A stretch of 64,000 nt of DNA from Candidatus Kuenenbacteria bacterium. GTDB taxonomy: Bacteria; Patescibacteriota; Patescibacteriia; UBA11705; JABHMO01. The stretch covers positions 2,327 through 66,326 of the forward strand of contig JABMRF010000023.1 in the NCBI GenBank assembly GCA_013202715.1. Reading direction: 5' to 3'. A model generated the notes under the pieces. The model saw only the letters and a program-made list of their open reading frames with translations, was not told the origin of the DNA and ran no database searches. Both the position numbers and the translations under genes were made by a program. Of the stretch, positions 7,368 to 46,930 are shown in pieces (position 1 is the stretch's first letter; each line of letters begins with the position of its first letter).

Positions 7368-8144
7368 ATGTTTTCCAGTCAGACAGCAAAAGAATTGCTT
7401 GGACAAGAAGCTTGGGAAGAGGGAAAGGTAATCCCACTCATGGAGGGTCCGTACCGCTACCGCATCATAGTGCATTGCTCCGTTCATGGAAGACAAAAGA
7501 CACAGTTTTCAAACGGAATGCAAAATTACTTTAGCTACATCGAGCTGCTGAACAATGCAGGCCAGTGGATTGAGTCGGGCGCAAACATGGTTCCTGTTTT
7601 GCCTGACGGGCGATTTATCATGGTTGTAGAACAGCGGCCCGCACAAAGTCGGTACAAAACTAACAAAAAGGCCTTGATTCAAGGTAAAACCATTGACCTA
7701 GACGTCTTCGGACCGCACAGCTCTCTGGAATTTCCCGGCGGAGCGGTTGATCCCGGTGAAGGCTTGAAAGCAGGATTTCTGCGTGAACTTCAAGAAGAAA
7801 CTGGAGTAAAAGAACAGACCGCTCTATGCTACCAGAGGATTGCCCCCTGCAATGGCTTTGGCTCAGAGCTTGCGCTCCATACACATTGGGGCGTCATCTA
7901 TCTGTCCGGGCTTAGGTTTGAGAGAGAAGTCGACACAGACGGAGGCCTGAGTGTCATGGCACTGACCAGAGGAGAAGTACAGGCCAACATCTGGAGTGGT
8001 GTTATCACTTCAGGGCAAGGTGGCCTCACTTGCTGGTCATTTTTACAGGAAGTTGAGCAAATCAAAGAAGATCCTGAATTGCAAAAGTATCTGATCGACA
8101 TTGGATATCTCTCGGTGGAAGAGCTTCAGCTAACCAACCTATAA
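7368..8144 (+). CDS. NUDIX hydrolase
   Basis: Nudix box PGGAVDPGEGLKAGFLRELQEETGV. SD ggagg. Terminator ccccctcatcacaggggg+T7 at 8152-8177. Confidence 0.8.
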   Translation: MFSSQTAKELLGQEAWEEGKVIPLMEGPYRYRIIVHCSVHGRQKTQFSNGMQNYFSYIELLNNAGQWIESGANMVPVLPDGRFIMVVEQRPAQSRYKTNKKALIQGKTIDLDVFGPHSSLEFPGGAVDPGEGLKAGFLRELQEETGVKEQTALCYQRIAPCNGFGSELALHTHWGVIYLSGLRFEREVDTDGGLSVMALTRGEVQANIWSGVITSGQGGLTCWSFLQEVEQIKEDPELQKYLIDIGYLSVEELQLTNL

Positions 8145-9519: not shown

Positions 9520-9593
9520 TCGGGGATCGTCTAATGGTAGGACACCTGGTTTTGGTCCAGGCAATCTAGGTTCGATTCCTAGTCCCCGAGCCA
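9520..9593 (+). tRNA. tRNA-Gln (anticodon TTG)
   Basis: Manual fold gives acceptor TCGGGGA/TCCCCGA, D-arm GTCT/GGAC, anticodon stem CCTGG/CCAGG with loop TTTTGGT (anticodon TTG), T-arm CTAGG-TTCGATT-CCTAG and an encoded CCA. Terminator hairpin at 9667-9699. Confidence 0.85.
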
Positions 9594-9839: not shown

Positions 9840-10382
9840 ATGTATAATGGCAGAGAACGAAAATTAAACCGTGCTAAATCTATTGATTATTCATTGCCGG
9901 GATTTTATTATTTAACGTTTTTAACAAAAAATCGGCTTGAATGGTTTGGAGAAATTAAAAACAACAAAATGGTTTTGAATGAATGGGGAAAAATTGTTTG
10001 CCGTCAATTATTATGGCTGGAACAACAATATGATCATGTGCGTTTGGATGAATGGATCATAATGCCAAATCATGTACATGTGATCGTCGAAATCCTTCAC
10101 GCATCGAACCCCACGCCTGTAAGGAACGGTCGCGACCGTTCCTTACAGGCGTGGGGAGACCGTGACCGTCGAGTACAGGAAAAAAAGAGAAAACCCATCC
10201 CCGAATTAATCGGTGCATTAAAAACCACATCATCCAAATGGATACATCGGAATGGTTTGTTTGAATTCAAATGGCATAAATCATATCATGACCGTGTCCT
10301 GCGCAGTCAATCCGAATTGGAACACGCTCGCTGGTATATTCGCACCAATCCTGGTCGCTGGCATCGCGACCGCAACAATTAA
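9840..10382 (+). CDS. tnpA: IS200-like / REP-associated tyrosine transposase (HUH), adjacent to tRNA-Gln
   Basis: HUH motif IIMPNHVHVIVEI and C-terminal WHKSYHDRVLR...WYIRTNPGRW, as in RAYT/IS200 TnpA. Contains an in-frame palindromic insert (see repeat 10112..10160). Confidence 0.8.
   Translation: MYNGRERKLNRAKSIDYSLPGFYYLTFLTKNRLEWFGEIKNNKMVLNEWGKIVCRQLLWLEQQYDHVRLDEWIIMPNHVHVIVEILHASNPTPVRNGRDRSLQAWGDRDRRVQEKKRKPIPELIGALKTTSSKWIHRNGLFEFKWHKSYHDRVLRSQSELEHARWYIRTNPGRWHRDRNN
10112..10160. repeat. REP-like 44-bp perfect palindrome embedded in-frame in the transposase gene
   Basis: ccacgcctgtaaggaacggtcgcgaccgttccttacaggcgtgg. A related copy, aggaacggtcacgaccgtcccct, lies at 30776-30808. Confidence 0.7.
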
Positions 10383-13426: not shown

Positions 13427-14416
13427 TTATTCTAAAGTTTTCAACACCGCCACCCTCTGCTCGTCAGTTAAACCAAGTGACTTTAACTTGTCATCCGCCT
13501 CTGCCTTTTCAATTTCTTGTAACTCTGCATAAACTCCTGCCACAGCCATAGTTTTATCCTGCAAAACTCTACCAAGTTTTCTCAATTCAACAGGAACTTC
13601 GACTTTCTTTTTAGCTTCCGGTTTTTCATAAACATACTCGTCGCCCTTCAAAACAATGCCCGCAGCTTGATCACCGCCTCTTCTTCCCTGGATCGCGCCA
13701 AGTAGTGCCGGCAATGCTTTTTCCAATTCATTCAAAGTAGCAATTTGTTTATCAGCTTTTTTCTTAATTTCTTGGACCTTTGGATCTTCCATGTCGCTGT
13801 CTTCATCGTAACCTGCGCCTTTATCCGCTCGATTCAACGCAAAAATCATGCGCATTTTTTCGATCAATTCATCATCACCAGGAATTCCCTCCGCCAGCGC
13901 GACAAATTTATCATAAGATTTTAATCCCTTACCTTTTGGTTCTTTTTCTTTCTCAAAATTGTTTACCAAATTCAGGGCTGCAACGTGCAGACCCGCCATC
14001 TTCGCTACAAAATCTATTTCTTCTAAACTTAATTCAAAATGTTTTGGCAAAAGCTCTCTCAGCATTCTCTCACTTTCTCCTTCATGCCCAACATACTGCC
14101 GTTTTTCCGCATCTTTTGGATGAACTTGCTGCCCTTCCGGCGAAGCCTTTCCAAGATCATGCGTTTTTCCGGCTAATATTAAAAGATTACGTTTTTTTTC
14201 CGGCAACCCAGCCACAAATTCATCTGACTCCAAGTTGCTGACCAGTTTTTTGGTATGATCATCCAAAGTTAATGAATGATAATCACTACGCTGGTCAAGT
14301 CCTTTCATGGCAGCTACTTCCGGAATTGCCGCTTCTAATTGTTCATAACTGGCATCTGCGCCAAATTTTTTGTCTTCAGGAGTTGGTGTGCCTCCCCCCA
14401 TCATTTTTTCTGACAT
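13427..14416 (-). CDS. HD-domain metal-dependent phosphohydrolase with N-terminal MSEKMMGGG-TPTPE motif
   Basis: Ordered H...HD...H...H...D motifs (YHSLTLDDH, KTHDLGK, VGHEGES, AGLH, LNRAD) resemble the CCA-enzyme-type HD domain. N-terminus MSEKMMGGGTPTPE. Confidence 0.5.
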   Translation of the reverse strand: MSEKMMGGGTPTPEDKKFGADASYEQLEAAIPEVAAMKGLDQRSDYHSLTLDDHTKKLVSNLESDEFVAGLPEKKRNLLILAGKTHDLGKASPEGQQVHPKDAEKRQYVGHEGESERMLRELLPKHFELSLEEIDFVAKMAGLHVAALNLVNNFEKEKEPKGKGLKSYDKFVALAEGIPGDDELIEKMRMIFALNRADKGAGYDEDSDMEDPKVQEIKKKADKQIATLNELEKALPALLGAIQGRRGGDQAAGIVLKGDEYVYEKPEAKKKVEVPVELRKLGRVLQDKTMAVAGVYAELQEIEKAEADDKLKSLGLTDEQRVAVLKTLE

Positions 14417-14430
14417 AAAATTATAATTAT

Positions 14431-15840
14431 TTATTTTTTAAAGTCTTCAAATACTTTTTTGAAGTCTTCTTCATTTAATAAAGAAGTTCTGGAAGCTGCA
14501 ATCAAAGAGCCGCCAGCCACTAACACTGTTGGATCTTTGGTAATAATATCATCTGCATCAACTTCACCTGAAGCAACTTTGTCATTTAGGCCAAAAAACG
14601 CTTCTCTATCCGCTTGCCCTTCCCAACCGTCAACCATTTTTTGTTCATCTTCAGTTTTTTCCGGCTTGGCAATAATCGCATCTCTTTTTTGTTTTTCCGC
14701 TTTTATTAAAGCTAGACAAATTGCGCTCAAATCCATAACATTGGCCATGTCAGGTGTAATCCCAATATCATAATTATCGCCAAATGCTCTGTCTTCACCC
14801 GCGTAAACCGCAACAACTGTGTCTGGGCTAACTCGGTTGTAAGCCATATTTGTAAAGACAAGCGGTTTTTTGCTGGAGCCAATCACAACATTCACCTCAA
14901 TATCATTTCCTTCTTTGTCTTTAATTATCATTTTCCCTTTTTCCGCCTTTTCAAACTCCTCTAAAAATTCTTCAAATGCTGCTTTTAAATTTTCCCGACC
15001 CTGACCAACCACTTCTTGCAATTCCGGAGACAACTCAAGTTTTGTAACATCAGTCGCTATATCAAAATTTGAATCTTTAATTTTTTCAGCATTGGCCGCA
15101 TTAATCAATTCAAAAATCATTTCATTACGCATGTTTTCATATTTTGCCTGAATTTCTTGAAGTTTTTTTACTCCCTCTGCGTTCAATCTCCCGTCTTCAC
15201 CTTTCATTTCCGGATTACCAAAAACTTCCTTACCAAGCTCTGCCCGGCCTCTGTCGCTAAGCAAACTTTTGATCGCGGAAGCCGTTCCCGGTAAACTGGA
15301 GGCATATTGTTCAGGATCAAGTCTGCTCAATCCATAATCTTCAATATTGGTAACTTTTGCCAGATCCTCAGCAATCACCGGCATTTCACCATTTTCAATT
15401 AAACTGCGGGTCAAATATGATGAAGCAATAGCGTCTAAATCACTCTCAAAATGAGTTTCAACTTTGGTAATGCTTTTTTCTTTAATTAACTGCAAAACCG
15501 CATCAGGATAATCAAAAACCATTTGAGTTGAACACTTTCTTGAATCAACTCCTTTGGCGCTAAAAAAAGCATCTATAGAATGGTGATCAATTGCACCGGC
15601 CAAGATACTTTCTTTATAAATATTATCAATGTCTTCCTGACTAAATTCTGTTTTATCTTTGTGTTTTTTCAAAAATTCTGTAAACACACCTGTGTCAGTA
15701 ATCAAAGACCCTTGCGCTAATTTTTCTTCAAGGTTAATTATAGCGCCCTTTGGCAAAGACGGTAGACACCCTTCATATTTTATAGGTGTAAATTCTTGTT
15801 TTTCCGGAGTTGGTCCGGCTCCCATCATTTTTTCTGACAT
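14431..15840 (-). CDS. Hypothetical protein, possible DHH/DHHA1-like phosphoesterase, with N-terminal MSEKMMGAGPTPE motif
   Basis: 469 aa. Its first 20 nt (ATGTCAGAAAAAATGATGGG) are identical to the 13427..14416 gene. Contains AIDHHSID, ESDLDAIASS and C-terminal VLVAGGSLIAAS (cf. DHHA1 GGGHxxAAG), but motif order is atypical. Confidence 0.45.
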   Translation of the reverse strand: MSEKMMGAGPTPEKQEFTPIKYEGCLPSLPKGAIINLEEKLAQGSLITDTGVFTEFLKKHKDKTEFSQEDIDNIYKESILAGAIDHHSIDAFFSAKGVDSRKCSTQMVFDYPDAVLQLIKEKSITKVETHFESDLDAIASSYLTRSLIENGEMPVIAEDLAKVTNIEDYGLSRLDPEQYASSLPGTASAIKSLLSDRGRAELGKEVFGNPEMKGEDGRLNAEGVKKLQEIQAKYENMRNEMIFELINAANAEKIKDSNFDIATDVTKLELSPELQEVVGQGRENLKAAFEEFLEEFEKAEKGKMIIKDKEGNDIEVNVVIGSSKKPLVFTNMAYNRVSPDTVVAVYAGEDRAFGDNYDIGITPDMANVMDLSAICLALIKAEKQKRDAIIAKPEKTEDEQKMVDGWEGQADREAFFGLNDKVASGEVDADDIITKDPTVLVAGGSLIAASRTSLLNEEDFKKVFEDFKK

Positions 15841-15878
15841 AAAATTTGTGTTATTTTTTGTAATTTATTACTTATATT

Positions 15879-16367
15879 TTATTCTTTCATCGCTAACATT
15901 TTAGTAAAAGCTCTTTTCATAGCTTTTTTAATTTCACCAGTACTAGTTAATCTAAACCCCCATCCATCATGACCGGTTGAATAACCTATTGTTTCACCAA
16001 AAAAACTGACTTCTCCTTCTTCATGATCATCATAATCTTCTGAAGACTTTGTTACGCTTCTGTTCAACAAAGAACTTGCATCAACTTTTACATTCATCTT
16101 CCGAGCTACCAAACTAAAAATACTTTCCAACTCATCCTCCAAGTGAAAACCCATACCAAAAGAACTACGCATTTCTTCAAATGCCTCCAATTCTTTATCT
16201 GCCCAATCAGCTATTTGGTCAATGTTTTTCACTGAAAACTCGACTTTATTGAATTCATCTTCATCTAAACATAAACCTAAATCATCATAGCTTTCTTCAG
16301 CTACTTCTTTTTCATGTTCATTCTCTACCTCCGGGCTTGGATCATTACCCATTGTAGGATCTTTCAT
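15879..16367 (-). CDS. Acidic hypothetical protein with N-terminal MKDPTMGNDPSPE motif
   Basis: 162 aa, pI-acidic, and shares the MG..[ST]PE N-terminal motif. 15-bp gap to the upstream gene, consistent with an operon. Confidence 0.45.
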   Translation of the reverse strand: MKDPTMGNDPSPEVENEHEKEVAEESYDDLGLCLDEDEFNKVEFSVKNIDQIADWADKELEAFEEMRSSFGMGFHLEDELESIFSLVARKMNVKVDASSLLNRSVTKSSEDYDDHEEGEVSFFGETIGYSTGHDGWGFRLTSTGEIKKAMKRAFTKMLAMKE

Positions 16368-16382
16368 AAATTTTAATTATTT

Positions 16383-16844
16383 TTATTCGTTTAATACTTT
16401 TTCCGCTTCTTGATTTTCATCTTCTAATCCTTTGATTCGTTTTTTTCTTTCTTCAATTCTACTTCGAATTAGCTCCATTGCTTTTTCCTTGCTTATAAAA
16501 GATACTTCTTTCTCGTCAACATCATAATTGGCTTCAACCTCTCTATATAGCCACAATTCATCAGATAACTTTTTTAATTCATCTACGTGATTATTCCCGC
16601 CGTCCCCAACGTCCAAAGAGGGAATATTGTCACAATCAAATTCAAAAAAATTGTCTAACTCATGAATTGCATCACTATCCTCTGCTGGAAATCGCCCCAT
16701 GTCGTCACTTGAAGGATATTTTCCATTGTTTCTTTTTAACATCTCATGAAAATCACGCTCCAATCCTCTGGCGCGACCAATTAGCTCTTTATTTTGTTCT
16801 TCCTCATTTGAAGAAGGTGTTTGGTTCCAATTTTCTACTGACAT
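16383..16844 (-). CDS. Acidic coiled-coil hypothetical protein, first gene of the four-gene operon
   Basis: 153 aa, D/E-rich. Lies immediately downstream of a long leader driven by the consensus promoter at 17105-17133. Confidence 0.45.
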   Translation of the reverse strand: MSVENWNQTPSSNEEEQNKELIGRARGLERDFHEMLKRNNGKYPSSDDMGRFPAEDSDAIHELDNFFEFDCDNIPSLDVGDGGNNHVDELKKLSDELWLYREVEANYDVDEKEVSFISKEKAMELIRSRIEERKKRIKGLEDENQEAEKVLNE

Positions 16845-27760: not shown

Positions 27761-29653
27761 TCAATTGATACCACCAGAGATCTTTGTATTAAATCCCATT
27801 TTCTTTTGATACTCGAGAGTTGCTACAATATTTCCAGCTTGCAACAGAGATTCAAAGGTGCCGGTATCGAGCCAACGACCACGAATCAGACGAACATCCA
27901 GCTCATTAATTGTCAAATATGCTTTGTGTACTTCAGTAATATCAGTTTCTGGGCGCCAGGTCGGCTTTATTCCCTTTGCAATATTAGCAACTCGACTGTC
28001 AAAAATATATATTCCTGGAATCGCATAATTACTTTTTGGCTCTTTTGGTTTTTCTTCAATCGACAGCACCTGCTTATTGATATCAAACTCAACCACTCCG
28101 AAACGCTCTGGATCCGGAACTTCAACGGCAAAAATGCGTCCACCTTTATCAAAGGATTTAATATCTTCAGTAAAATCATGATCAAAAAACAGATTATCAC
28201 CCAAAATTAAGGTTACATTATCATCACCAATAAAATTCTCACCGATAATAAATGCTTCCGGCAATCCTTTTGGCGCATCCTGAATTTCATAGGTAATTTT
28301 CACACCCCATTCTTTTCCTGAACCAAGCAATTGCAAATACTGGCCAGCATACTCCGGAGCAACAATTATCAAAATATCTTTAATCCCGGACTTAATTAGT
28401 GTTTCCAGCGGATACATGACCATTGGTTTGTTATAAATCGTCAATAGCTGCTTGCTGGTAATTTTTGTTAACGGATGCAGGCGAGTACCCTTTCCTCCTG
28501 CCAAAATAATACCTTTCATATTTTTTTGTGTGTCACTCTGCCTGCCCGCCGTAGTTTTAACGGAGGTGGGAGCGAACGAACGCGGTGAGTGAGTCGAAGA
28601 GTTAGAAACTACATTAATTTTTTGCTCGACTTGCTGAACATGTTCCACAAAAACTTTTTCAACCGGCGACTCCGGCGCAACAAGTTCTTCGTTTACAAGA
28701 GGAGCTGGGTCAACCTTTTCTTCTTCCATTCTAAACCCGTCTGACAAATGGATCTCTGGTGCTTTCTCGATTCGATCAACTTTATTTCCGCCAGGGGCGG
28801 AAACTTTTTCAACCGCCCCAATTTCATCCAAAAATGATTGGAGCGCATCTTGCCAACTTCTCATTTTTGGCAGTTTTGAATTAATTAAACTGGAAAACAT
28901 CGGTCTTTTCGCTGAGCGAGGAAATACACTACAAGCAACTGGGTTTATTTTCACAGTTTTGTTAGCTCGTTCAAAAATTTCACAAGCAAATTCACACCAG
29001 GTACAGGCGCCTTCATTTGTGACGTGATAAATCCCAGGAGCATAATCTCCTTCGACCAATAATTTGGTTTGTTCAGCCAGATCAACGACGTAGGTTGGAC
29101 TGCTCACTTCTTCGTCAACAATATCCAGCTCCTCTTTTTCATCAGCCAACTTTAACATTATTTCCACAAAACTTTTTTTTGCTCCTTCAATCAAGGCTGA
29201 TTTCCCAAACAAACGAGAAGTTCTGATTAAAAAAGTCAAATCATTATGCTCTAAAATCTCTTCGCCTAAATATTTTGATTCACCGTATTTTGAAATCGGT
29301 GCCGGCAAATCATATTCTAGATAACCTTCTTGCTTTTGACCGTCAAAAACATAGTCCGTACTGTAGTGAATTAAAAAAGCGCCAACCTTATTGGCAGCCT
29401 TGGCTAGATTAATCGGCCCTTGATGGTTAATTTTTTTTGCTAATTCAAACTTTTCTTCGCAATCATCAACTGCGTTGTAAGCTGCAGAATTAATAATTAA
29501 TTCCGGCTGTAGTTCCCTGATCTTCTGGTTAACCGCTTTTTCATCAGTTATATCTAATTCTTCCCTGTCCCAAAGCGTTAATTCATAATTACTAAATACT
29601 TTGGCTAATTCTTGACCGAGCATCCCCTTTGATCCGATGATTAACAGTTTCAT
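27761..29653 (-). CDS. Fused dTDP-4-dehydrorhamnose reductase (RmlD) / glucose-1-phosphate thymidylyltransferase (RmlA)
   Basis: N-terminal ~290 aa MKLLIIGSKGMLGQEL...NSAAYNAVDDCE (RmlD). A ~90-aa low-complexity linker. C-terminal 252 aa MKGIILAGGKGTRLHPLTKITSKQLL...GRWLDTGT (RmlA). One continuous 630-aa ORF. Confidence 0.8.
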   Translation of the reverse strand: MKLLIIGSKGMLGQELAKVFSNYELTLWDREELDITDEKAVNQKIRELQPELIINSAAYNAVDDCEEKFELAKKINHQGPINLAKAANKVGAFLIHYSTDYVFDGQKQEGYLEYDLPAPISKYGESKYLGEEILEHNDLTFLIRTSRLFGKSALIEGAKKSFVEIMLKLADEKEELDIVDEEVSSPTYVVDLAEQTKLLVEGDYAPGIYHVTNEGACTWCEFACEIFERANKTVKINPVACSVFPRSAKRPMFSSLINSKLPKMRSWQDALQSFLDEIGAVEKVSAPGGNKVDRIEKAPEIHLSDGFRMEEEKVDPAPLVNEELVAPESPVEKVFVEHVQQVEQKINVVSNSSTHSPRSFAPTSVKTTAGRQSDTQKNMKGIILAGGKGTRLHPLTKITSKQLLTIYNKPMVMYPLETLIKSGIKDILIIVAPEYAGQYLQLLGSGKEWGVKITYEIQDAPKGLPEAFIIGENFIGDDNVTLILGDNLFFDHDFTEDIKSFDKGGRIFAVEVPDPERFGVVEFDINKQVLSIEEKPKEPKSNYAIPGIYIFDSRVANIAKGIKPTWRPETDITEVHKAYLTINELDVRLIRGRWLDTGTFESLLQAGNIVATLEYQKKMGFNTKISGGIN

Positions 29654-30893: not shown

Positions 30894-31904
30894 TTATTTC
30901 CTATTGTACCACTGCTCATAATAATCTTTGTAATCCCCAGACTTAATCCTCTGCCACCAACCACCATTATTCGCATACCAATCAATTGTCTGCTTGATCC
31001 CCTGCTCAAAATTCATTTTTGGTTGCCACCCTAGCTCGGCTTGAACCTTGTGTGAACGAACTGCGTAACGCCGATCATGACCCGGGCGATCCTTTACATA
31101 TTCAATCATTTCTTCACCAAATCCCATACCCTGTAAAATTGCCATTGTTAATTCGTAATTTGATTTTTCAGAATCTCCGCCAATACAATAAGTATGACCA
31201 ATCCTTCCACCACGAATAACTAAATCAACCGCTTCGCAATGGTCATCAACGTGAATCCAATCACGAACGTTCTTGCCGTCTCCGTAAAGTGGGACTTTTT
31301 TTCCTTCCATTAGATTCGTAATGAAAAGTGGAATAACTTTTTCTGGAAATTGAAACGGGCCATAATTATTTGAGCAATTTGAAATTGTAATCGGCAAGCC
31401 ATAAGTGTGATAATATGCTCGCACCAAATGATCTGATGCGGCCTTGGAAGAAGAGTACGGACTTTTCGGGTCATATGGAGTTTCTTCATGAAATGCTTTG
31501 TTTTCATCTTCCAGTGATAGTGAACCAAAAACCTCATCTGTAGAAACATGGTGAAATCTTTTGTTCCCAAGCTGACGAGCAACTTCGAGAAGTGAATGAG
31601 TTCCAAGCACATTTGTCCGAACAAAAGAAAATGGATCCAAAACTGATCGGTCGACATGAGACTCTGCCGCGAAATGCACAATAATGTCACAATCAACAGC
31701 AATATGCGCTACCAATTCGGAATTTAAAATATCCCCCTTCACAAACTTATAGTTTGGGTGATTTTCAAAGTCTTTTAGATTTTCCAAATTACCCGCATAA
31801 GTCAAACTATCCAGATTGATAACCTGGTCCTGCGGATATTTATTCAAAACATAGCGGATAAAATTCGATCCGATAAATCCTGCTCCTCCGGTCACTAATA
31901 GTTT
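30894..31904 (-). CDS. rmlB: dTDP-glucose 4,6-dehydratase
   Basis: MKLLVTGGAGFIGSNFIRYV...Y..SK and C-terminal ...DRRYAVRSHKVQAELGWQP. Confidence 0.92.
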   Translation of the reverse strand, partial: KLLVTGGAGFIGSNFIRYVLNKYPQDQVINLDSLTYAGNLENLKDFENHPNYKFVKGDILNSELVAHIAVDCDIIVHFAAESHVDRSVLDPFSFVRTNVLGTHSLLEVARQLGNKRFHHVSTDEVFGSLSLEDENKAFHEETPYDPKSPYSSSKAASDHLVRAYYHTYGLPITISNCSNNYGPFQFPEKVIPLFITNLMEGKKVPLYGDGKNVRDWIHVDDHCEAVDLVIRGGRIGHTYCIGGDSEKSNYELTMAILQGMGFGEEMIEYVKDRPGHDRRYAVRSHKVQAELGWQPKMNFEQGIKQTIDWYANNGGWWQRIKSGDYKDYYEQWYNRK

Positions 31905-31987
31905 CATATTTTTTCTAATCATTATTCACAACTTACTAATTACAACTTACTACTTTATTTCAAATAATGCAAATCAATTTTTGACAA

Positions 31988-32018: not shown

Positions 32019-33998
32019 TTATTCTAAATCTTCTCCTTTTTGACCTCTCACAAACTTTCGTTCAGTTGCCCTATTCTTTGTTCTATTTTTAACTTTTTTA
32101 CTTCGCCCTTTCTCTATCTTTGGCCTGAACTTTGGTGATTCATCCGGCCGTTGATCAACCTCTTGGTCAGCTGGCGCTCGATGATAGGATTTGGTTCTTG
32201 ATTTTCCTACTTTTTCAAATTTTCCTTTTGTCTTTCTGCCCTTTTTCAAAGTTTCTCTACCCATTGATTGTCGTTGCTCAGTTAATGTTCCTGATTTGGT
32301 TGATTTAATAAATTCTGGCGGTGGTGGTGGTGGTGGATCAGGTGGGTCATGAATCGAATCATCATCATCATCATCTTCTTCTTCTTCCTTGTCTTTATCG
32401 GGTGGCGGTGGAAAATCTTCTTTTTTCCCTTTCGGCGGGAATTCTCCATAATTCTGAGGATCTACAACTCCATGCTCATCAATTATGATTGCTTTGTCTT
32501 TTCGATGAGTCACAAAGGTTTCTTCTTCCGGTGTTTCATCTTTTGGAACTGATGGCAATTTAATTCCAATTTCCCCTGTTTCAAGTTCAAACTTATATCT
32601 ATCGTGGACAGGCTTTGGAGTTGGCCTTGGTACTGGGACAGGTTCTGGCTCCGGCTCCTGTTCAAGATCAAATTCAATTTCTGGCACTACAATATCTACC
32701 TCTTTTTCTTCCAATGGTGGCTCCGGCGGAATTTCCCTAACAATGTCATCAGCTTCAAAAGCAACCACAAGTGCAACATCAACCCCTCGACGACTTTCAA
32801 ATACTTGGTTAAGTAAATTTCTTTCCTCCTCTGTTAATTTTTCCAAATTCAAATGTCCACGATTATAATTTCTAATAAATGTATGTAACTGTTCATCGTT
32901 TAAGCCAAATTCTTTTTTTAATAATTCATCAACTCCGTCTTTTTCCAACCATTCTCCATCAACATCAGCACCAACCTTGTCTTCATCCCCTCTCATAATT
33001 TCAAAATCTTTTATGCCCAGTTCATCTAAAACTTCTCTCACAGTTGCTTCTCCAAGATCTCCGCGACCATGCTGCAGCTCACGGTTTTTATCAAGATTTC
33101 CCTCCGAACTACCCTTACCTGTCAACTTAACATAAACTGCTTTAATCTCTTCAACAGATTTGCCCTGTTCCTCTGCTTGCGTTCTTAGTTCTGTTCTAAA
33201 ATACTCCTTTAATGCCTCCTTTTGTTCCGGAGATATTTTTTTTGCTTCATATCTTTTTGACCAATCCACTTTTAGATCAAACTGATCCCCTTTGGAAAAT
33301 AATGTCTCAGGATTTGGCAGGGTTTCAGTTGAAGGATCATTTCCCGTCCGCATTGACTCTTGATCAATCTTCACCGTTGTTTTATTAAGTTTAACTCTTG
33401 GTTTTATTTTCAAATCTTTTCCGGCCAATGGATCAACTTCCACTGCTTCTTCTGGCTCAGCCTCTCCAATCCCCTCTTCCTTTGATACTTTTATCCCCTT
33501 TGGGTATTTGACCGTAAACTCATGACCTTCTGCCTCTTCCAGATTTTGAGCCGGTGCCTGTTCACTTGAAGATTGTTCATCTCTTTGAGTAGCCTCTACA
33601 TCTGGTATCGGAGTGACCATCAGCATTATGGCCGCCAAGGCGCCTCTTAACCACTTATTACCCGGTAAATTGGATAATGTTTTTAAAAATTTTTTAAATC
33701 CCTTAACGTCTTCTGCTGTTTTTAATTCTTTAAGACGCAATTCTTGCATTTGCTCGACAAACTTATTCGCGTCTGCTTCAGATATATTTTTTTCCCTAAA
33801 CGCTTGCCTCCACTGTTCAGGGGATAATCTCAAAGCCAGCTCCTTGTAGTCCTCAGAAGTCAATTGTTTTCCTTTTGGTAAAGTTTCAATTGGTTGCGCA
33901 CCTTCTTTGTAATACTGAGGATATTCTAAATCCAATTCCTCCTCTCCGCCTGCCGGCGCGCGATTTTCGTCAATTGATTGTTGGTCAAGATTTGCCAT
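32019..33998 (-). CDS. Large low-complexity protein: acidic/Pro-rich core with a Lys/Arg-rich basic C-terminal tail
   Basis: 659 aa with EPEPEPVPVPRPTPKPV, EEEEDDDDDDSIHDPPDPPPPPPPE and a basic tail KGRKTKGKFEKVGKSRTKS...KKVKNRTKNR. No signal peptide. Confidence 0.5.
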   Translation of the reverse strand: MANLDQQSIDENRAPAGGEEELDLEYPQYYKEGAQPIETLPKGKQLTSEDYKELALRLSPEQWRQAFREKNISEADANKFVEQMQELRLKELKTAEDVKGFKKFLKTLSNLPGNKWLRGALAAIMLMVTPIPDVEATQRDEQSSSEQAPAQNLEEAEGHEFTVKYPKGIKVSKEEGIGEAEPEEAVEVDPLAGKDLKIKPRVKLNKTTVKIDQESMRTGNDPSTETLPNPETLFSKGDQFDLKVDWSKRYEAKKISPEQKEALKEYFRTELRTQAEEQGKSVEEIKAVYVKLTGKGSSEGNLDKNRELQHGRGDLGEATVREVLDELGIKDFEIMRGDEDKVGADVDGEWLEKDGVDELLKKEFGLNDEQLHTFIRNYNRGHLNLEKLTEEERNLLNQVFESRRGVDVALVVAFEADDIVREIPPEPPLEEKEVDIVVPEIEFDLEQEPEPEPVPVPRPTPKPVHDRYKFELETGEIGIKLPSVPKDETPEEETFVTHRKDKAIIIDEHGVVDPQNYGEFPPKGKKEDFPPPPDKDKEEEEDDDDDDSIHDPPDPPPPPPPEFIKSTKSGTLTEQRQSMGRETLKKGRKTKGKFEKVGKSRTKSYHRAPADQEVDQRPDESPKFRPKIEKGRSKKVKNRTKNRATERKFVRGQKGEDLE

Positions 33999-34230: not shown

Positions 34231-34779
34231 TTAACTATCTAAAAATAATTGTAATTTACAAAAACAAGCCATAGTCGGACCGTCAGTAATTTCACCGGCC
34301 TTGATCATGTTTCCCAATTGCTCAAGAGTAACTTTTTTCGTTTCCAAAAACTCATTATAATCAGGCTTAATTTCCTTGGTAGTGGGTTCAACCTCACGAG
34401 CAACATAGACATGACCACGTTGGTTGGAATAACTATTCGCCGTATAAAACTCACCAATCTTTTCCCAATTGTCCGATTGCAAACTAACCTCTTCCGCCAT
34501 TTCCCGTTTCGCAGCCGCCAGAGGGGTTTCATTTTTTTCAATATCAATTCCACCCGATGGCAGTTCCCAGGTATATTCTTTGGTAGGATATCGATATTGG
34601 CCGACTAGATAAACTTCATTATCTTTTGTAAGTGGAATAACAATGACAAAATCTGCATAATCCATTACAAAATATTTGCATTCATTTCCATCAGGCAATG
34701 CAACATCATCCTCCAATATTTTATACCAGGGATTTTCGTGAACAAGTTTACTTTTAATTGTTTTCCAGAACTTTTCCAT
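34231..34779 (-). CDS. NUDIX hydrolase (ADP-ribose pyrophosphatase-like)
   Basis: Nudix box LPSGGIDIEKNETPLAAAKREMAEEVSL. Confidence 0.8.
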   Translation of the reverse strand: MEKFWKTIKSKLVHENPWYKILEDDVALPDGNECKYFVMDYADFVIVIPLTKDNEVYLVGQYRYPTKEYTWELPSGGIDIEKNETPLAAAKREMAEEVSLQSDNWEKIGEFYTANSYSNQRGHVYVAREVEPTTKEIKPDYNEFLETKKVTLEQLGNMIKAGEITDGPTMACFCKLQLFLDS

Positions 34780-34782
34780 ACT

Positions 34783-36555
34783 TTATTCAAACAGTAATTT
34801 CAAATTTGGATACTGCTGTCTTAACTTGTCCTGTTCAGTCACAGAAATATCTTTGCTAAAATAAATAACACCGCCGATAGATTTCGGAAGTTTTAATCCT
34901 TCTACCGAGGTAAGGCTACCAAGATCAAGATTACCGCCAATAGATTCCGGAAGTTTTAGTCCTTCTGCCGAGGTAAGGCTACCAAGAGTAAGCCAACCGC
35001 CAATAGATTCCGAAAATTTTAGTCCTTCTGCCGAGGTAAGGCTACCAAGTTCAAGATCGCCGCCAATAGACCCTGGAAGTTTTAATCCTTCTGCCGAGGT
35101 AAGGCTACTAAGCTCAAGATAGCCGCCAACAGATTCCGGAAGTTTTAGTCCGTCTACTGAGGCAAGTCGACTAAGATCAAGATCGCCACTAATAGCTTCA
35201 GGAAGTTTTAACACTTTTGCCGAGGAAAGAAGATCAAGCACAAGATCGCCGTGATGATACTTTATGTTTCCACTCAAAGCTATTGCTTTTGTTGTACTGA
35301 TTTGAAACTTTGGTATGCCAAGAATATGGGACAGATCCGCTCTCATATCCCTACCAGAAAAAATTTCACATATTCGCGGATCTTTTTCATAACCAAATCC
35401 TTCAATCTTGCCGTCAAACTCATAGAGAAAGCGGAGATCGTCCATGGATAGTTCTTCGCTAGCATTATTTTTTGCTTCCAACTCTGTCAACCGCTTCATA
35501 GCTGCTGATTTACTTTTGTATCTCTCCCCCTCCTTTCCGAATTTATTGAGCTTGTCATCTAATATATCTGTATTTGCAATATGTGGATCAAGATTTTGTT
35601 GAGCTGCCACTCCTCTTACTTCGGCAATATTTTCGCCTTCCATACGAATAGCAAGCCTAGGTATTATTGGATTACCTTGTTTATCATGAGAATAATAGAC
35701 ATAAAAGTCTCCGTTCTCGAGCTGTGCTTCTGCGGTACTTTCTCCAGCTGTACACCAACCTGTTCCATGTCCTTGGAGCGATTCTACCAATGGCATATGA
35801 TCCGCTCCCTCATTGTATTTAATCCAGTCACCCGTGGTTATCATCAGTTCGCTTTCTTCTGCTGGCGTAACTTTTTCAATTGCCCAGGCATAAAGCTTAC
35901 CAAAATTCGCGCCCTGCAACAGTTTCTTGAATTCTGGATCATCTTCTGCTAACGAGACATTTTCTTTATTAATTTTTTTTGCCATTGCATCCACAACGTA
36001 AGCCAAAGCTTCTCTATTTAGATCAGGAAATGGAGCTACTGTATCTTTTCTTCTTTTACCAAAAACTTGCTTTTCTTTGTCAAAAGTTGATAATTTTACC
36101 ATACCGGTAAAAGCCCAGTATTTTGCCCAGGTTGGAAAACTAATTGAGTCTTCTGAGGTAAAATAGTCAAGCCAATTGTCCAAGGTTGATTTCTGGTCAG
36201 CAACAATGACCTCTTCTGCCTGCCGCCGTACTTCATCAGTAATTTCAACATCACCATGTCCCAGCTCTCTCGCTAATCTTCTTTGGGTTTCATAGTAGCT
36301 GTCAGGAATATTTTCAGGTTTAATGACAAGTGATTTGTAGTAACTTTGCTTGATTCTATCCAAAACGCGTGGGTCATCTCTGTGGCCCATGTGAGTTTTT
36401 TCAATAACGCCTAGCCAGTCAGAAATTTTTTCTGCCGGTTTTTGAGATGATTTTTCACCCTTTTTCCTTTTTCTTGATTTCTCGTGTTCTACTGGAGGAG
36501 TGGTATGAAGATTGGGATTTCTTTCGTGCAAAAATTGTGGACCTTGCATACTCAT
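34783..36555 (-). CDS. Hypothetical protein with C-terminal tandem 22-aa LRR-like repeats
   Basis: C-terminal x6 repeats of GLKLPESIGGxLxLGSLTSAE. The N-terminal ~400 aa match no known domain. No signal peptide. Confidence 0.55.
   Translation of the reverse strand: MSMQGPQFLHERNPNLHTTPPVEHEKSRKRKKGEKSSQKPAEKISDWLGVIEKTHMGHRDDPRVLDRIKQSYYKSLVIKPENIPDSYYETQRRLARELGHGDVEITDEVRRQAEEVIVADQKSTLDNWLDYFTSEDSISFPTWAKYWAFTGMVKLSTFDKEKQVFGKRRKDTVAPFPDLNREALAYVVDAMAKKINKENVSLAEDDPEFKKLLQGANFGKLYAWAIEKVTPAEESELMITTGDWIKYNEGADHMPLVESLQGHGTGWCTAGESTAEAQLENGDFYVYYSHDKQGNPIIPRLAIRMEGENIAEVRGVAAQQNLDPHIANTDILDDKLNKFGKEGERYKSKSAAMKRLTELEAKNNASEELSMDDLRFLYEFDGKIEGFGYEKDPRICEIFSGRDMRADLSHILGIPKFQISTTKAIALSGNIKYHHGDLVLDLLSSAKVLKLPEAISGDLDLSRLASVDGLKLPESVGGYLELSSLTSAEGLKLPGSIGGDLELGSLTSAEGLKFSESIGGWLTLGSLTSAEGLKLPESIGGNLDLGSLTSVEGLKLPKSIGGVIYFSKDISVTEQDKLRQQYPNLKLLFE
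34861..35235. repeat. Six near-identical tandem 66-bp repeats inside the CDS (encode the LRR-like units)
   Basis: Repeats of ...gccaatagattccggaagttttagtccttctgccgaggtaaggctaccaag... with only a few substitutions per unit. Confidence 0.8.
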
Positions 36556-36571
36556 ATATGTGTTATCTTAT

Positions 36572-36979
36572 TTATTTCAAAATTTTTCTTATTTTCTCTG
36601 CCACTTGCTCAATCTCCCCGTCTTGATACGGCTCCCCTACAAAATGCTCATGCCCATCATCCTCTTTCCTTGGAATAATATGAAAATGTAAATGAGGAAC
36701 TAACTGACCTGCAACTGAGCCATTATTTACAAGTAAATTAAAGCCTTTATAATCCAAAGACTCACAAACTCCTTTTGCTATTTTTGGAATAATGCTGATC
36801 AGAGTCCGCAAATCTTCACCGGACGTATCCAATAAGTTTTCAGAATGATTTTTGGAAATGACCAAGGTGTGGCCAGAATTATCAGGATTGATCTCTAAAA
36901 AAGCAAGAACATCTTTATCCTCGTAAACTTTATGCGCTGGAATTTCTCCATTTACAATTTTACAAAACAAGCAATCGGT
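36572..36979 (-). CDS. HIT-family (histidine triad) nucleotide hydrolase
   Basis: MTDCLFCKIVNGEIPA...HLHFHIIPR (HxHxHxx). Start set at the MTDC Met. Confidence 0.9.
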   Translation of the reverse strand, partial: TDCLFCKIVNGEIPAHKVYEDKDVLAFLEINPDNSGHTLVISKNHSENLLDTSGEDLRTLISIIPKIAKGVCESLDYKGFNLLVNNGSVAGQLVPHLHFHIIPRKEDDGHEHFVGEPYQDGEIEQVAEKIRKILK

Positions 36980-36987
36980 CATATATA

Positions 36988-37060
36988 TAGTCAAAAGTTT
37001 TAAGTCAATAGTCTAGAGTTGCTTACAACTTTTGACTTTTGACTTTTGACTCTAGACTTG
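36988..37060. repeat. Palindromic intergenic element (MITE-like family)
   Basis: tagtcaaaagttttaagtcaatagtctagagttgcttacaacttttgacttttgacttttgactctagact. Confidence 0.7.
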
Positions 37061-37755: not shown

Positions 37756-38211
37756 TTATCTGTTTTCAGTTTCCCAGTCAAAACCAATTCTCGAATCATC
37801 AAAATCAATTCTTTCCTCATCAGGATTGTTCGGATCATAGGCTTCACTGGTATGATAAAATAATCCAACTTTTTTATTTCCCAAAACTCGGTAACCGTGC
37901 GCAACGCCCGGTGGGATTGAAATCACGACCGGATTGTCTTCACCAGCACAAATAACCTGTGTTTTTCCTTTTGTGGCAGAACTCTCTCTTAGGTCGTGAA
38001 GAACAACTTGAGCCATCCCTTTCACAACGAACCAAACATCCCATTGTCTTTTGTGCCAATGAAAAGCTTTGATCACACCTGGGTGTGTTTCTGTATAGCT
38101 GGTTTGTTTTACTGTCTGAAATGTTTCCTCCCCCTCCTTGATAACTTCTGCAAAAAATCCTCGGTCATCGCAGAATTTTTTCAGTTGTTTGATTTTTACA
38201 TCTTGAATCAT
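37756..38211 (-). CDS. rmlC: dTDP-4-dehydrorhamnose 3,5-epimerase
   Basis: RGFFAE...HWH...WFVVKG...DLR..S.T.G...PPGVAHGYRVL, a cupin of the RmlC family. A small hairpin (ccgcgtagcgg/ccgctacgcgg) lies downstream. Confidence 0.88.
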   Translation of the reverse strand: MIQDVKIKQLKKFCDDRGFFAEVIKEGEETFQTVKQTSYTETHPGVIKAFHWHKRQWDVWFVVKGMAQVVLHDLRESSATKGKTQVICAGEDNPVVISIPPGVAHGYRVLGNKKVGLFYHTSEAYDPNNPDEERIDFDDSRIGFDWETENR

Positions 38212-43372: not shown

Positions 43373-43729
43373 TTAAATTGGCTCGGTGTGTTCAAGAAAA
43401 ATTCTTTTTTCAAAACCACCTCTAGTTTTTTTTCGCTTTTGCTTTATTTCATCAACTTCTTCTTGTGTGATGTCATTAGCTTTCATTATGGCCTCCAAAA
43501 CTTCTAATACATCTCCTATTTCCTTCATTCTCTCTTCTTTATCCTTGGCTCCTTGTACTTCATTTACTTCTTCAAGAAGTTTTATCAATAAAGCTTGTTT
43601 GTATTCTTCCTGTTCTAATATCCTCGTCTCTGCCATATGATCATCAGCTTCAATTATTTCAGGAATTTTATCCCGAACTAATTTTTTATAAACCTTTCTG
43701 TTTGGATTTTCTCCTTTGAATTCATGCAT
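43373..43729 (-). CDS. MazG-like / HisE-like nucleoside triphosphate pyrophosphohydrolase (small all-alpha NTP-PPase)
   Basis: KLVRDKIPEII...LEEVNEV...EIGDVLEVLEAIMKANDITQEEV...KRKKTRGGFEKRIFL. Confidence 0.6.
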   Translation of the reverse strand: MHEFKGENPNRKVYKKLVRDKIPEIIEADDHMAETRILEQEEYKQALLIKLLEEVNEVQGAKDKEERMKEIGDVLEVLEAIMKANDITQEEVDEIKQKRKKTRGGFEKRIFLEHTEPI

Positions 43730-44226: not shown

Positions 44227-44620
44227 ATTAAATAATTTCCGCCCCACTTTCTGCGACCGACGTAATTTTATATGAAGGCGGTAGTGGGCTTTTCTGAACT
44301 ATGCGTTGAACTGACTAGAAGTCAGGCAGAAATTTTTTTATTCAAACAAAAACCCAAGGCATATACCTTGGGACCTGAACAAATTCAGGCGGTTCCACCC
44401 AAGTTCTTCGGACAAACAAACGCCAAAGCTCTTAATTTATTAAATTGTCCTCACAAACTTAGTTAACCACGACAGTTAAATCCACAAAGGTATCTGGTTG
44501 GTAGCCAGACCAATCATCTGTGATTATATTAAGTATAACATTACTAAAATGAATGTCAACAAAAAAACCAGGCTTATTAAACCTGGTTGTGTTCGATTTC
44601 ACAAGACTTCTCTAGGAAGT

Positions 44621-46054
44621 CTAAAGAATGAAACAATCAAGACAAAGGCGCCTCGCTGAAAACATAAACTCCTTTGCTACGTCCGAAGGCAGATTAAACC
44701 TACAGCTATCAACGCCTAGCAATTCAGCAATCTCTTCATCAGTTCTAATTTTACCGTCAGGGCCAAGCGCAACGAGGTCATTCTTCACTCTATTGGCTTT
44801 TCCCCACGGACAAACATTGACCAATTTCGGACTAGAAATTCTAGCGTGGACTTCTCTAAGGCCAATCGCTTTCAACTTTGGTAGCAAATCACCAGAGGTT
44901 TGTGTGCCTCGAACAATAGAATCATCATAAAAAGCCACAACCGCATTTTCGTAATTTCCTTCCAAAATCGGCAGTAACTTTTTCAATGCTTCCAGTTTTC
45001 TTCTTTCTCTGTCAACTTCTGTGAAACTTCTGCCAGCATAAGGATACTTGCACAAAATTTCGTCATAAAACGGGATTCTTGCTCCAGGATTTTCTCTTGC
45101 ATTACGAACGTATTCTTGGTGAGCACCAATTGCGTGAAACCGACCTGAGTCTGGTACAGGAATTATCACGTCCGGAAAAAACCCTTGTTCAATATCAAGT
45201 CTAGCCAGTCTTGCTCCCAATCGTCTCCTGGCTTCAGCTGCAGACAATCCCTCCATAACTGCACCGGGATTACTGGTATAAATCCATTTAAAAGAACACG
45301 GCTGGGATTCCTCAGCTCTGTCTAATGCAATTTTGCCAAGCAATCTGCAACTACCGCTCTCAAGTACAACCACTTCTCCTGGATCAAGGTCTCGTTGATA
45401 AACAAAGCCTTGATTATAAATTCCACAGGAATCTGAAACAGCTACAATTGAACCATCTTTTTCACCGATTACAACTGATTCGTGAGCATCATGACCTCTT
45501 GCTACATAAATTCCATTCGCTGTAAGAATTGCAATAGCGTAAGATCCTCTCATTTTTTCAGCCATATGACCGATACCATTCATAAAGTTCCAATCGTGAT
45601 CTTTTTCATGATCCCAAGTTGCGTCAACAATCAGCTGAGCCAAGAGAAAAGCGTCATCGTCTCTCTCAAAAACTCGGTTTTGCCCAATAAAATAACTAAG
45701 CAGTTCTTCTCTATTACCTATTCTACCAGCAAAGCAAATAGCAAAAGGAGGAAAGCAGGATGACTTTGCAAAATACGGTTCACGAACACTTGAGCTGATG
45801 TGTCCGAGGCCCAGAGGACCTGAAAACCCCGCTAAATCATTAGCAAAGGTTTCCCTCAGAAGACCGCGATGAGTTCTAAGTAGAAACTCACCACCATTAT
45901 CAACAGTAACTAAACCTGCATACTGCTGACCAAAGTGTTGTTGGTAAAAAGTTGTCCAAAATAGATCCTGAACAAAAGATTGATCCCGTTCTTCATCAGG
46001 ACTATCCTGACAATAACGCTTCGGATCAATACTCATTGCCACAATTCCGCTCAT
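44621..46054 (-). CDS. Amidophosphoribosyltransferase (PurF) homologue with Ser replacing the N-terminal nucleophile Cys
   Basis: SD gtggaggctttgATG gives MSGIVAMS... Conserved PurF blocks CSFKWIYTSNPG, IPVPDSG, YAGRSF, VVAFYDDSIVRGTQTSG, REVHARISSP. Position 2 is Ser, not Cys. Confidence 0.75.
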   Translation of the reverse strand: MSGIVAMSIDPKRYCQDSPDEERDQSFVQDLFWTTFYQQHFGQQYAGLVTVDNGGEFLLRTHRGLLRETFANDLAGFSGPLGLGHISSSVREPYFAKSSCFPPFAICFAGRIGNREELLSYFIGQNRVFERDDDAFLLAQLIVDATWDHEKDHDWNFMNGIGHMAEKMRGSYAIAILTANGIYVARGHDAHESVVIGEKDGSIVAVSDSCGIYNQGFVYQRDLDPGEVVVLESGSCRLLGKIALDRAEESQPCSFKWIYTSNPGAVMEGLSAAEARRRLGARLARLDIEQGFFPDVIIPVPDSGRFHAIGAHQEYVRNARENPGARIPFYDEILCKYPYAGRSFTEVDRERRKLEALKKLLPILEGNYENAVVAFYDDSIVRGTQTSGDLLPKLKAIGLREVHARISSPKLVNVCPWGKANRVKNDLVALGPDGKIRTDEEIAELLGVDSCRFNLPSDVAKEFMFSARRLCLDCFIL

Positions 46055-46154
46055 CAAAGCCTCCACTTTGGCAAAAAGAAGAAAACACGGAACAAATTAA
46101 TTTTAACTCTATGAAGCGATAATGTCAAATCTCGATTATGATTTAATAAATAAA

Positions 46155-46630: not shown

Positions 46631-46930
46631 CTAATTAATCAAAACATCAGTTGATGGAACCTTTGCTACTTCAGCTAATTCTTCTGCATCTGCAGTCTCG
46701 CTATCAAAGCAAGTCTCACAGAGAAGAACCAGTTTTCTGATTTTCTCGTCAAAGGTCACGAGAAAATCACTATCCGGAACACAAAGAGCGACTTTATTAC
46801 ATCTACTACAGCGACAATATTTAAATCCGCGCTTTGCTCTGGCTTCACTTGAAATATCAGGTTGCCAAAAAGGATTTTTACGGGTGCCAACACCATCAGA
46901 AGATCGTTCTTGTTTTTCTTTTTTTGGCAT
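46631..46930 (-). CDS. Small Cys-rich (zinc-ribbon-like) hypothetical protein
   Basis: CRCSRCNKVALCVPD...LLCETCFD. Promoter TTGACA-17-TAAATT at 46969-46997 on the minus strand. Confidence 0.45.
   Translation of the reverse strand: MPKKEKQERSSDGVGTRKNPFWQPDISSEARAKRGFKYCRCSRCNKVALCVPDSDFLVTFDEKIRKLVLLCETCFDSETADAEELAEVAKVPSTDVLIN

Follow-up and report, generated by a model that had tools for sequence, protein, structure and literature searches.

Described PurF-type proteins and the Kuenenbacteria gene

Canonical amidophosphoribosyltransferase (PurF) of the [4Fe-4S] Bacillus and plant type (PDB 1ao0, 1gph and 6lbp) is composed of an N-terminal nucleophile (Ntn) domain and a type I phosphoribosyltransferase domain. 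Within the searched literature on PurF-like proteins only one relevant study was found, i.e. the description of PurF-prime of Crenarchaeota (Brown et al. 2011, Biol Direct 6:63, PMC3261824), which lacks the N-terminal Cys (replaced by Ala, Val or sometimes Ser) and is encoded in tandem with a true purF gene. This protein was proposed in 2011 to be ammonia-dependent (PMC3261824). A mechanistic model is provided by Cys1 mutants of Escherichia coli PurF: as summarized in the same paper, replacement of Cys1 by Ser or Ala abolished the glutamine-dependent activity, while ammonia-dependent synthesis of phosphoribosylamine was kept (Mei and Zalkin 1989, as cited in PMC3261824). Here we describe a gene encoding a Cys-less PurF-like protein, located in a 64-kb stretch of DNA (the window) on contig JABMRF010000023.1 of a Candidatus Kuenenbacteria bacterium. 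The reading that we favour, and to which we give an even chance, is that its product is a functional glutamine-independent, probably ammonia-dependent phosphoribosyltransferase of a distinct PurF-like lineage. That the protein is glutaminase-dead and phosphoribosyltransferase-competent is very probable.

44621..46054, minus strand: coding sequence of the Cys-less PurF-like protein, 477 codons and a stop (open reading frame (ORF) list and sequence)
46049..46054, minus strand: start codon ATG and Ser codon AGC at the position of PurF Cys1 (direct reading and alignment of 120 homologues)

The window protein and canonical PurF share the two-domain fold, the phosphoribosyl pyrophosphate (PRPP), pyrophosphate (PPi) and flexible loops, and four aligned cysteines. 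However, the window protein lacks Cys1, Arg26, Asn101 and the Arg73-Tyr74-x-Thr76 loop, has GTQ in place of GTT, shows only 25-27% identity to PurF and has no pur context. Its nucleophile position, its glutamine site and its score against the curated model all place it outside PurF. PurF-prime, compared through its published description and locus tags, resembles it in the replacement of the N-terminal Cys (by Ser in the window protein and by Ala, Pro, Ser or Gly in its family). The tandem arrangement with purF recurs in six Dehalococcoidia relatives, unlike the window, the loci of the candidate phyla radiation (CPR) and those of Acidobacteria. Moreover, PurF-prime genes belong to pur clusters (purF-purF'-purD); the window gene, located in a CPR genome, seems to form a transcription unit of its own. 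The E. coli mutants differ in that they are engineered point changes in an otherwise intact glutamine site, while in the window protein the whole site has been remodelled by evolution, under selection.

The glutaminase site

The N-terminal alignment with PurF, proposed by an earlier sequence-only reading of this DNA, comprised 120 homologues and 6 canonical PurFs, the latter encoded beside family members in Dehalococcoidia. It gave the following residue comparison.

45305..46054, minus strand: N-terminal Ntn-fold domain (residues 1-250), glutaminase site dismantled (alignment)
Cys1: Cys in 6/6 canonical PurFs; Ala 51, Pro 41, Ser 24, Gly 2, gap 2 and Cys 0 in the family (120 sequences); Ser in the window protein
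Arg26 (HRGQ): Arg in 6/6 canonical PurFs; Leu in 105/120 of the family; Phe (HFGQ) in the window protein
NRYSTAGS loop (Arg73, Tyr74, Thr76): present in 6/6 canonical PurFs; lost by an 8-residue deletion in the family; lost in the window protein
Asn101 (HNGN): Asn in 6/6 canonical PurFs; Ser in 98 and Ala in 14 of the 120 family sequences; Ala (FAGR) in the window protein
Gly102 and Asp127: present in 6/6 canonical PurFs; kept in the family; kept in the window protein

A Pfam search with the window protein yielded only a sub-threshold match to GATase_7 (21.5 bits, cutoff 25). Its score against the PurF equivalog model TIGR01134 is 141.8 bits (cutoff 350), compared with 527.8 bits for a canonical PurF encoded next to a family member and 198-220 bits for other Cys-less clades. 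The sequence-only reading had stated that all phosphoribosyltransferase and glutaminase blocks are present; this holds for the phosphoribosyltransferase blocks, but not for the glutaminase ones. Its suggestion of a glutaminase-dead paralogue is borne out more strongly than it was put, since the whole glutamine site is gone and not Cys1 alone.

The same reading had also allowed for a mechanistically altered paralogue. In one such case, with penicillin acylase as the precedent, loss of the initiator Met would turn Ser2 into an N-terminal nucleophile, and the protein would still be an amidohydrolase-coupled transferase. Ser-type Ntn hydrolases exist, Ser is permissive for methionine aminopeptidase, and the N-terminal strand of the protein is conserved. 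Nevertheless, we consider this explanation very improbable. The position is occupied by Ala or Pro in 92 of the 120 homologues, and the protein has lost the oxyanion-hole Asn, Arg26 and the Arg73 loop. A Ser/Thr-type Ntn hydrolase is recognized by a conserved nucleophile at position 1 together with an oxyanion hole; in this family position 1 varies and the oxyanion-hole Asn is replaced. In addition, the Cys1 to Ser mutant of E. coli PurF had no glutamine-dependent activity, as far as it is described in PMC3261824. Because the position is so often Ala or Pro and never Cys, Ser2 is no substitute nucleophile; the family accepts a range of small residues at this place (Ala, Pro, Ser, Gly), and Ser is one of them. 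All four of these residues permit Met removal when they follow the initiator Met, and their exclusive use may reflect a continuing need for a free N-terminus or for tight packing. The Ser of the window protein is not a one-off Cys to Ser substitution; the protein is one member of a large conserved lineage.

The phosphoribosyltransferase domain

44624..45304, minus strand: type I phosphoribosyltransferase domain (residues 251-477); PPi, flexible and PRPP loops kept
44897..44926, minus strand: PRPP-binding loop DDSIVRGTQT (residues 377-386); GTQ is the lineage signature, where PurF has GTT
45296..45298, minus strand: Cys253, aligned with the first [4Fe-4S] ligand of Bacillus-type PurF; Cys in 119/120 of the family and 6/6 canonical PurFs
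44810..44812, minus strand: Cys415, aligned with the second Fe-S ligand; Cys in 120/120
44633..44644, minus strand: Cys471-x-x-Cys474, aligned with the third and fourth Fe-S ligands; both Cys in 120/120

Three loops are each conserved in at least 117 of the 120 sequences: PVPDSG (PPi loop), K..GRSF..R..K (flexible loop) and DDSIVRG (PRPP loop). Within the PRPP loop, Asp, Asp, Ser and Gly occur in 119-120 sequences, and the Gln found where canonical PurF has Thr occurs in 119. The window protein keeps 93 of the 98 near-invariant positions of the family. It may also bind an Fe-S cluster, to judge from the aligned cysteines. Several invariant aromatic and basic residues near the phosphoribosyltransferase motifs (W256, Y337, W417, K419 and R305) are the family's own.

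Comparison with the 85%-identical relative in locus L006 gave a ratio of nonsynonymous to synonymous substitutions (dN/dS) of 0.14 overall, 0.09 for the phosphoribosyltransferase domain and 0.20 for the N-domain. The latter, with a pairwise identity of 56% within the family, is thus also constrained, and both halves of the protein are under purifying selection. With the family alignment as input, AlphaFold gave a confident model (pLDDT 91.2, pTM 0.90) that has a strand starting from residue 2; its confidence dips at residues 341-360, the region of the PurF flexible loop. The best PDB matches found for this model with Foldseek are PurF of Bacillus subtilis (1ao0) and Arabidopsis (6lbp), with TM scores of 0.81-0.85 over the full length and 25% identity.

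Start codon and expression signals

46060..46064, minus strand: Shine-Dalgarno sequence GGAGG, 5 nt before the ATG (direct reading)
46100..46128, minus strand: sigma-70-like promoter TTGACA-17-TAAAAT (consensus scan, 11/12 matches; pattern match only)
44566..44588, minus strand: intrinsic-terminator-like hairpin with a T run, 33 nt past the stop codon (consensus scan)

The gene opens with ATG-AGC-GGA-ATT, which corresponds to the N-terminus MSGIVAMS. Direct reading of the DNA confirms the earlier observation of a Ser codon after the initiator Met, behind a good Shine-Dalgarno sequence. This could be an artefact of a wrong start, of a sequencing error at a Cys codon (AGC to TGC is a single-base change) or of a decaying pseudogene, but we regard the chance of any of these as practically negligible. 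An upstream in-frame start whose propeptide would expose a Cys was looked for and ruled out: the preceding codons GTG-GAG-GCT-TTG (V-E-A-L) contain no Cys, the GTG overlaps the Shine-Dalgarno sequence, so that the ATG is the start, and the homologues begin at the same Met. A sequencing error was likewise rejected. The DNA of the gene was found again, identical, in an independent metagenome assembly of the Joint Genome Institute (JGI), and in each of the relatives in L006, L007, L012 and L013 a GGAGG of its own likewise precedes a Ser codon (AGC or AGT). The Ser is thus genuine, and the ATG was called correctly as the start. Decay of the gene is contradicted by the low dN/dS and by the existence of hundreds of family members.

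The window protein is 100% identical to NCBI HQ571_03105, a "hypothetical protein" of Candidatus Kuenenbacteria bacterium. Its gene sits between small unannotated ORFs and dtd/thrS, and the predicted promoter and terminator that bracket it suggest a monocistronic unit. A scan of the window and 16 related loci with Rfam found no purine, PRPP or ZTP riboswitch upstream, and detected only tRNAs and a tmRNA.

The Cys-less PurF-like lineage

A word-indexed search retrieved 670 relatives. A profile search that covered 1.84 billion cluster representatives exhaustively yielded 11,987 PurF-type proteins. In the ranking of the latter, a core family is distinguished with about 44 representatives at the 50% identity level (642-366 bits). 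We refer to this grouping, defined in the present analysis, as the "RGTQ" Cys-less PurF-like family. Four features mark it, and the window protein has all of them: an N-terminus of the form M-[A/P/S]-G-[L/I]-x-[A/G]-[L/M]-S, loss of the Arg73 loop, replacement of Asn101 by Ser or Ala, and the RGTQ loop. In reference-genome loci the core family occurs in Patescibacteria, Acidobacteriota (Bryobacterales, Solibacteraceae) and Dehalococcoidia. One Acidobacteria member shares 65% identity with a member from Minisyncoccales and 58% with one from Dehalococcoidia, and the Kuenenbacteria-type subclade of the window protein is the most divergent in the core family (41-53% identity to members of three phyla).

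Ranked below the core family is a Cys-less clade from Omnitrophota and some archaea, with the motifs M[S/T/G]G.FGVVS and then GTDYHSHLGT. The core family is nearer to this clade than to canonical PurF. The clade, 30-36% identical to the family of the window protein, shares with it the absence of Cys1 (replaced by Ser, Thr, Gly or Ala), the change of Arg26 to Leu, the loop deletion and the RGTQ loop. It differs in its N-terminal motif and in occupying the purF slot of pur operons (two Omnitrophota genomes). The literature searched holds no published name for it. A further Cys-less clade, from Aenigmatarchaeota and Nanoarchaeota, starts with MGIAVVH and carries INHTGQE. When the profile search was made with non-core Cys-less proteins, it recovered members from DPANN archaea and Omnitrophota but no named Crenarchaeota, in a list dominated by canonical PurFs.

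Five members of the lineage (P0153, P0176, P0177, P0179 and P0183) carry Cys1 and HRGQ together with the loop deletion, Ser101 and the RGTQ loop. In a rough neighbour-joining tree these Cys1-bearing members are placed between the canonical PurFs and the Cys-less proteins, and the gene of one of them (P0179; L097 47-1727) has the same ogt-like / PurF-like / rplT-rpmI synteny as Cys-less CPR members. Given these shared marks, the intermediate place in the tree and the CPR synteny, the cysteine was lost within the PurF-like lineage. P0134 has Val at position 2; for P0134 and P0121 either the contigs are too short to give a context or the same CPR synteny is found.

No model in Pfam or NCBIfam names the family. 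Its members are mostly labelled "hypothetical protein" by NCBI and "amidophosphoribosyltransferase" by JGI. As a consequence of the latter label, which some NCBI entries also bear, metabolic reconstructions of CPR, DPANN and Omnitrophota genomes can score a purF that is unable to use glutamine. The literature searched appears to hold no description of several of these features: the breadth of the lineage across bacteria, DPANN archaea and Omnitrophota, its shared loop deletion together with the RGTQ signature, the intermediates that still bear Cys1, the pairing with a GuaA-like protein described below and the occupancy of the purF slot in Omnitrophota.

A role in anti-phage defence was considered and rejected: no PADLOC family was matched at E up to 0.1 and the neighbouring genes are housekeeping ones. 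Only a generic match at the level of PurF was obtained in PHROGs.

Gene neighbourhoods

The description of the gene as orphaned from a purine pathway holds for the window, but not for the family, in which purF, IMPDH-like or guaA-like genes are neighbours and whose sister clade is found in a pur operon. In two Omnitrophota genomes the sister Cys-less gene takes the place of purF in the order purB-purL-(LOG-like)-[gene]-purM-purD-purE, and its stop codon overlaps the purM start by 4 bp. The LOG-like gene between purL and this gene (Lysine_decarbox, LDcluster4) is located at 7321-7974 in L093 and at 7278-7934 in L094. In six Dehalococcoidia loci a canonical purF gene lies 73-257 bp upstream of the paralogue, on the same strand; its product has a propeptide (MHES, followed by CGIFG) and the motifs HRGQE, GHNRYST and HNGN.

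Tandem arrangement with canonical purF, seen in Dehalococcoidia and Crenarchaeota, would also fit a non-catalytic pseudoenzyme, i.e. a PRPP- or nucleotide-binding regulatory subunit or sensor that forms, for example, a hetero-oligomer with PurF or a GuaA-like protein, like the AdoMetDC prozyme of trypanosomatids. The dead glutaminase fits this explanation, as does the remodelling of the FARPDS and KNRY motifs of canonical PurF, which we take to be its allosteric nucleotide site, to TGFPN and KYPY in the Cys-less family. However, the near-invariant catalytic residues of the phosphoribosyltransferase domain exceed what binding alone would need. Moreover, in CPR and DPANN contexts the gene occurs on its own and no partner gene lies close to it, and the Omnitrophota sister clade holds the slot of a catalytic gene. 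We therefore think a non-catalytic pseudoenzyme improbable; on the strength of the catalytic residues and the lone occurrences, a purely regulatory one would be the less likely case.

A second kind of neighbour is a GuaA-like PP-loop protein, whose gene is adjacent to the PurF-like gene, mostly divergently oriented, in 16 Acidobacteria genome loci. This 321-aa protein matches guaA_Cterm (the C-terminal, ATP-pyrophosphatase part of GMP synthase) with 284 bits, against a cutoff of 338.75, and has no glutaminase domain. In L095 a GuaA-like gene follows that of the Cys1-bearing P0153 in the same direction after a 32-bp gap; its product is 45-47% identical to the Acidobacteria partner and shares its variant motifs. 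The stand-alone GuaA-like proteins of 312-321 aa are encoded at L001 8921-9886 (minus strand), L003 8924-9889 (minus strand) and L095 1696-2634 (plus strand), and their variant motifs are K-x-QHNVLQQ-G and a C-terminal KPPST-E. A carA-like gene comes after the GuaA-like one in L095. In four CPR loci an IMPDH-like gene (441 bits, cutoff 481.5) is located directly upstream of the PurF-like gene.

These neighbours raise the possibility that the phosphoribosyl group is passed to an acceptor other than ammonia, e.g. xanthine or another purine-like base placed at the old ammonia channel, in the xanthosine/guanosine monophosphate (XMP/GMP) branch or in salvage, together with the GuaA-like protein and IMPDH. 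Such a reaction would be in keeping with the adjacency of both partner genes and with the family-own invariant residues near the phosphoribosyltransferase motifs listed above, and it would explain why the gene is retained in organisms living by salvage. On the other hand, the sequence allows no inference of the acceptor, the position of the sister clade in the purF slot argues for phosphoribosylamine formation, tblastn probes detected neither a guaA-like nor an IMPDH gene in the window, and the adjacency may merely reflect clustering of nucleotide genes. We rate a non-ammonia acceptor as unlikely.

Other surroundings were also recorded. A Nudix gene is part of the conserved block upstream of the PurF-like gene in 16 CPR loci, and in CPR relatives a Nudix gene and an ogt-like gene are found just upstream of it. 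A carbamoyltransferase-like gene lies directly upstream in two CPR loci (L027 9188-9853 and L037 8344-9420); its product has an HPTQAL motif and clusters with PyrB-type proteins. In the subclade nearest to the window protein (L007, L008 and L013), the gene is part of what looks by eye like a heat-shock cluster, hrcA-grpE-dnaK-(95 aa)-PurF-like-dnaJ. DPANN and other archaeal members have housekeeping genes as surroundings.

Proposed function

Since the glutaminase site is dismantled while the phosphoribosyltransferase site and the PurF fold are intact, we propose that the protein would bind PRPP and transfer its phosphoribosyl group without glutamine. The most probable reaction would be PRPP + NH3 -> 5-phosphoribosylamine + PPi, the ammonia-dependent half-reaction of PurF, as suggested by the behaviour of the E. 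coli Cys1 mutants, by the sister clade in the purF slot and by the tandem arrangement with purF. The N-domain would have been kept to serve as a ligand-binding module or a structural lid. That ammonia is the acceptor in this particular organism is a tentative assignment, to which we give slightly less than an even chance.

Several observations weigh against an ammonia-dependent first step of purine synthesis. The earlier remark that the window has no other pur genes proved correct: none was detected with Pfam among 40 ORFs, and tblastn with purB, purL, purM, purD, purE, canonical purF, IMPDH-like and guaA-like probes found nothing in it. Within 10 kb of the core-family loci the pur probes detected only one gene, a purM about 8.5 kb away in L045. 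Patescibacteria have been described as lacking the synthesis of nucleic-acid building blocks (PMC11665869), so that phosphoribosylamine would lack a known consumer in this organism; the compound is not known to be used other than through PurD. The pur operons are those of a sister clade, outside the window protein's own family, and the GuaA-like and IMPDH-like neighbours speak for the XMP/GMP branch more than for the first step of purine synthesis. Finally, the N-domain has family-specific invariant residues, more than a passive lid would need. The constrained N-domain and these neighbours thus make a different acceptor, or a function in the XMP/GMP branch, conceivable.

A more specific form of the latter idea is that the CPR/DPANN protein is a new phosphoribosyltransferase, or an ammonia- or ligand-handling partner, which acts in the XMP/GMP branch with the GuaA-like enzyme that lacks a glutaminase (GATase) domain and with IMPDH. 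Its glutamine pocket would have been rebuilt for a new substrate, and it would make no phosphoribosylamine for purines. We hold this proposal to be unlikely; if true, it would add a new nucleotide-salvage reaction typical of ultra-small symbionts. The recurrent pairing with a GATase-less GuaA-like protein is a concrete lead on function. If proteins of both the Omnitrophota type and the window type make phosphoribosylamine from ammonia, purine synthesis possesses, for its committed step, a natural variant that is independent of glutamine. The strong constraint on the protein (up to 65% identity between phyla, dN/dS 0.14) in organisms presumed to depend on salvage points to a function that is off the present metabolic map.

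Other genes of the window

The window contains two Nudix genes and a HIT-family gene among the ORFs at 7368-8144 (plus strand), 34231-34779 (minus strand), 36572-36994 (minus strand) and 43373-43729 (minus strand). The same set of coordinates includes a 118-aa ORF two genes downstream of the PurF-like gene, which has no NCBIfam match and was assigned by eye as putative MazG-like. Taken together, these ORFs make the window notably rich in functions of nucleotide house-cleaning. A 99-aa ORF (46631-46930, minus strand) upstream of the PurF-like gene has two CxxC pairs, which resemble a zinc ribbon, and no family match.

ORFs of 329, 469, 162, 153, 659 and 590 aa, located at 13427-16844, 32019-33998 and 34783-36555 (all minus strand), have no Pfam match at E up to 1e-5. 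Two ORFs for IS200-like Y1 transposases (Pfam Y1_Tnp) were identified at 3397-3954 (minus strand) and 9840-10382 (plus strand), the second near a tRNA gene (9520-9590). A single 630-aa ORF (27761-29653, minus strand) joins an RmlD-type reductase and an RmlA-type nucleotidyltransferase domain, and further dTDP-rhamnose genes are present nearby at 30894-31922 and 37756-38211.

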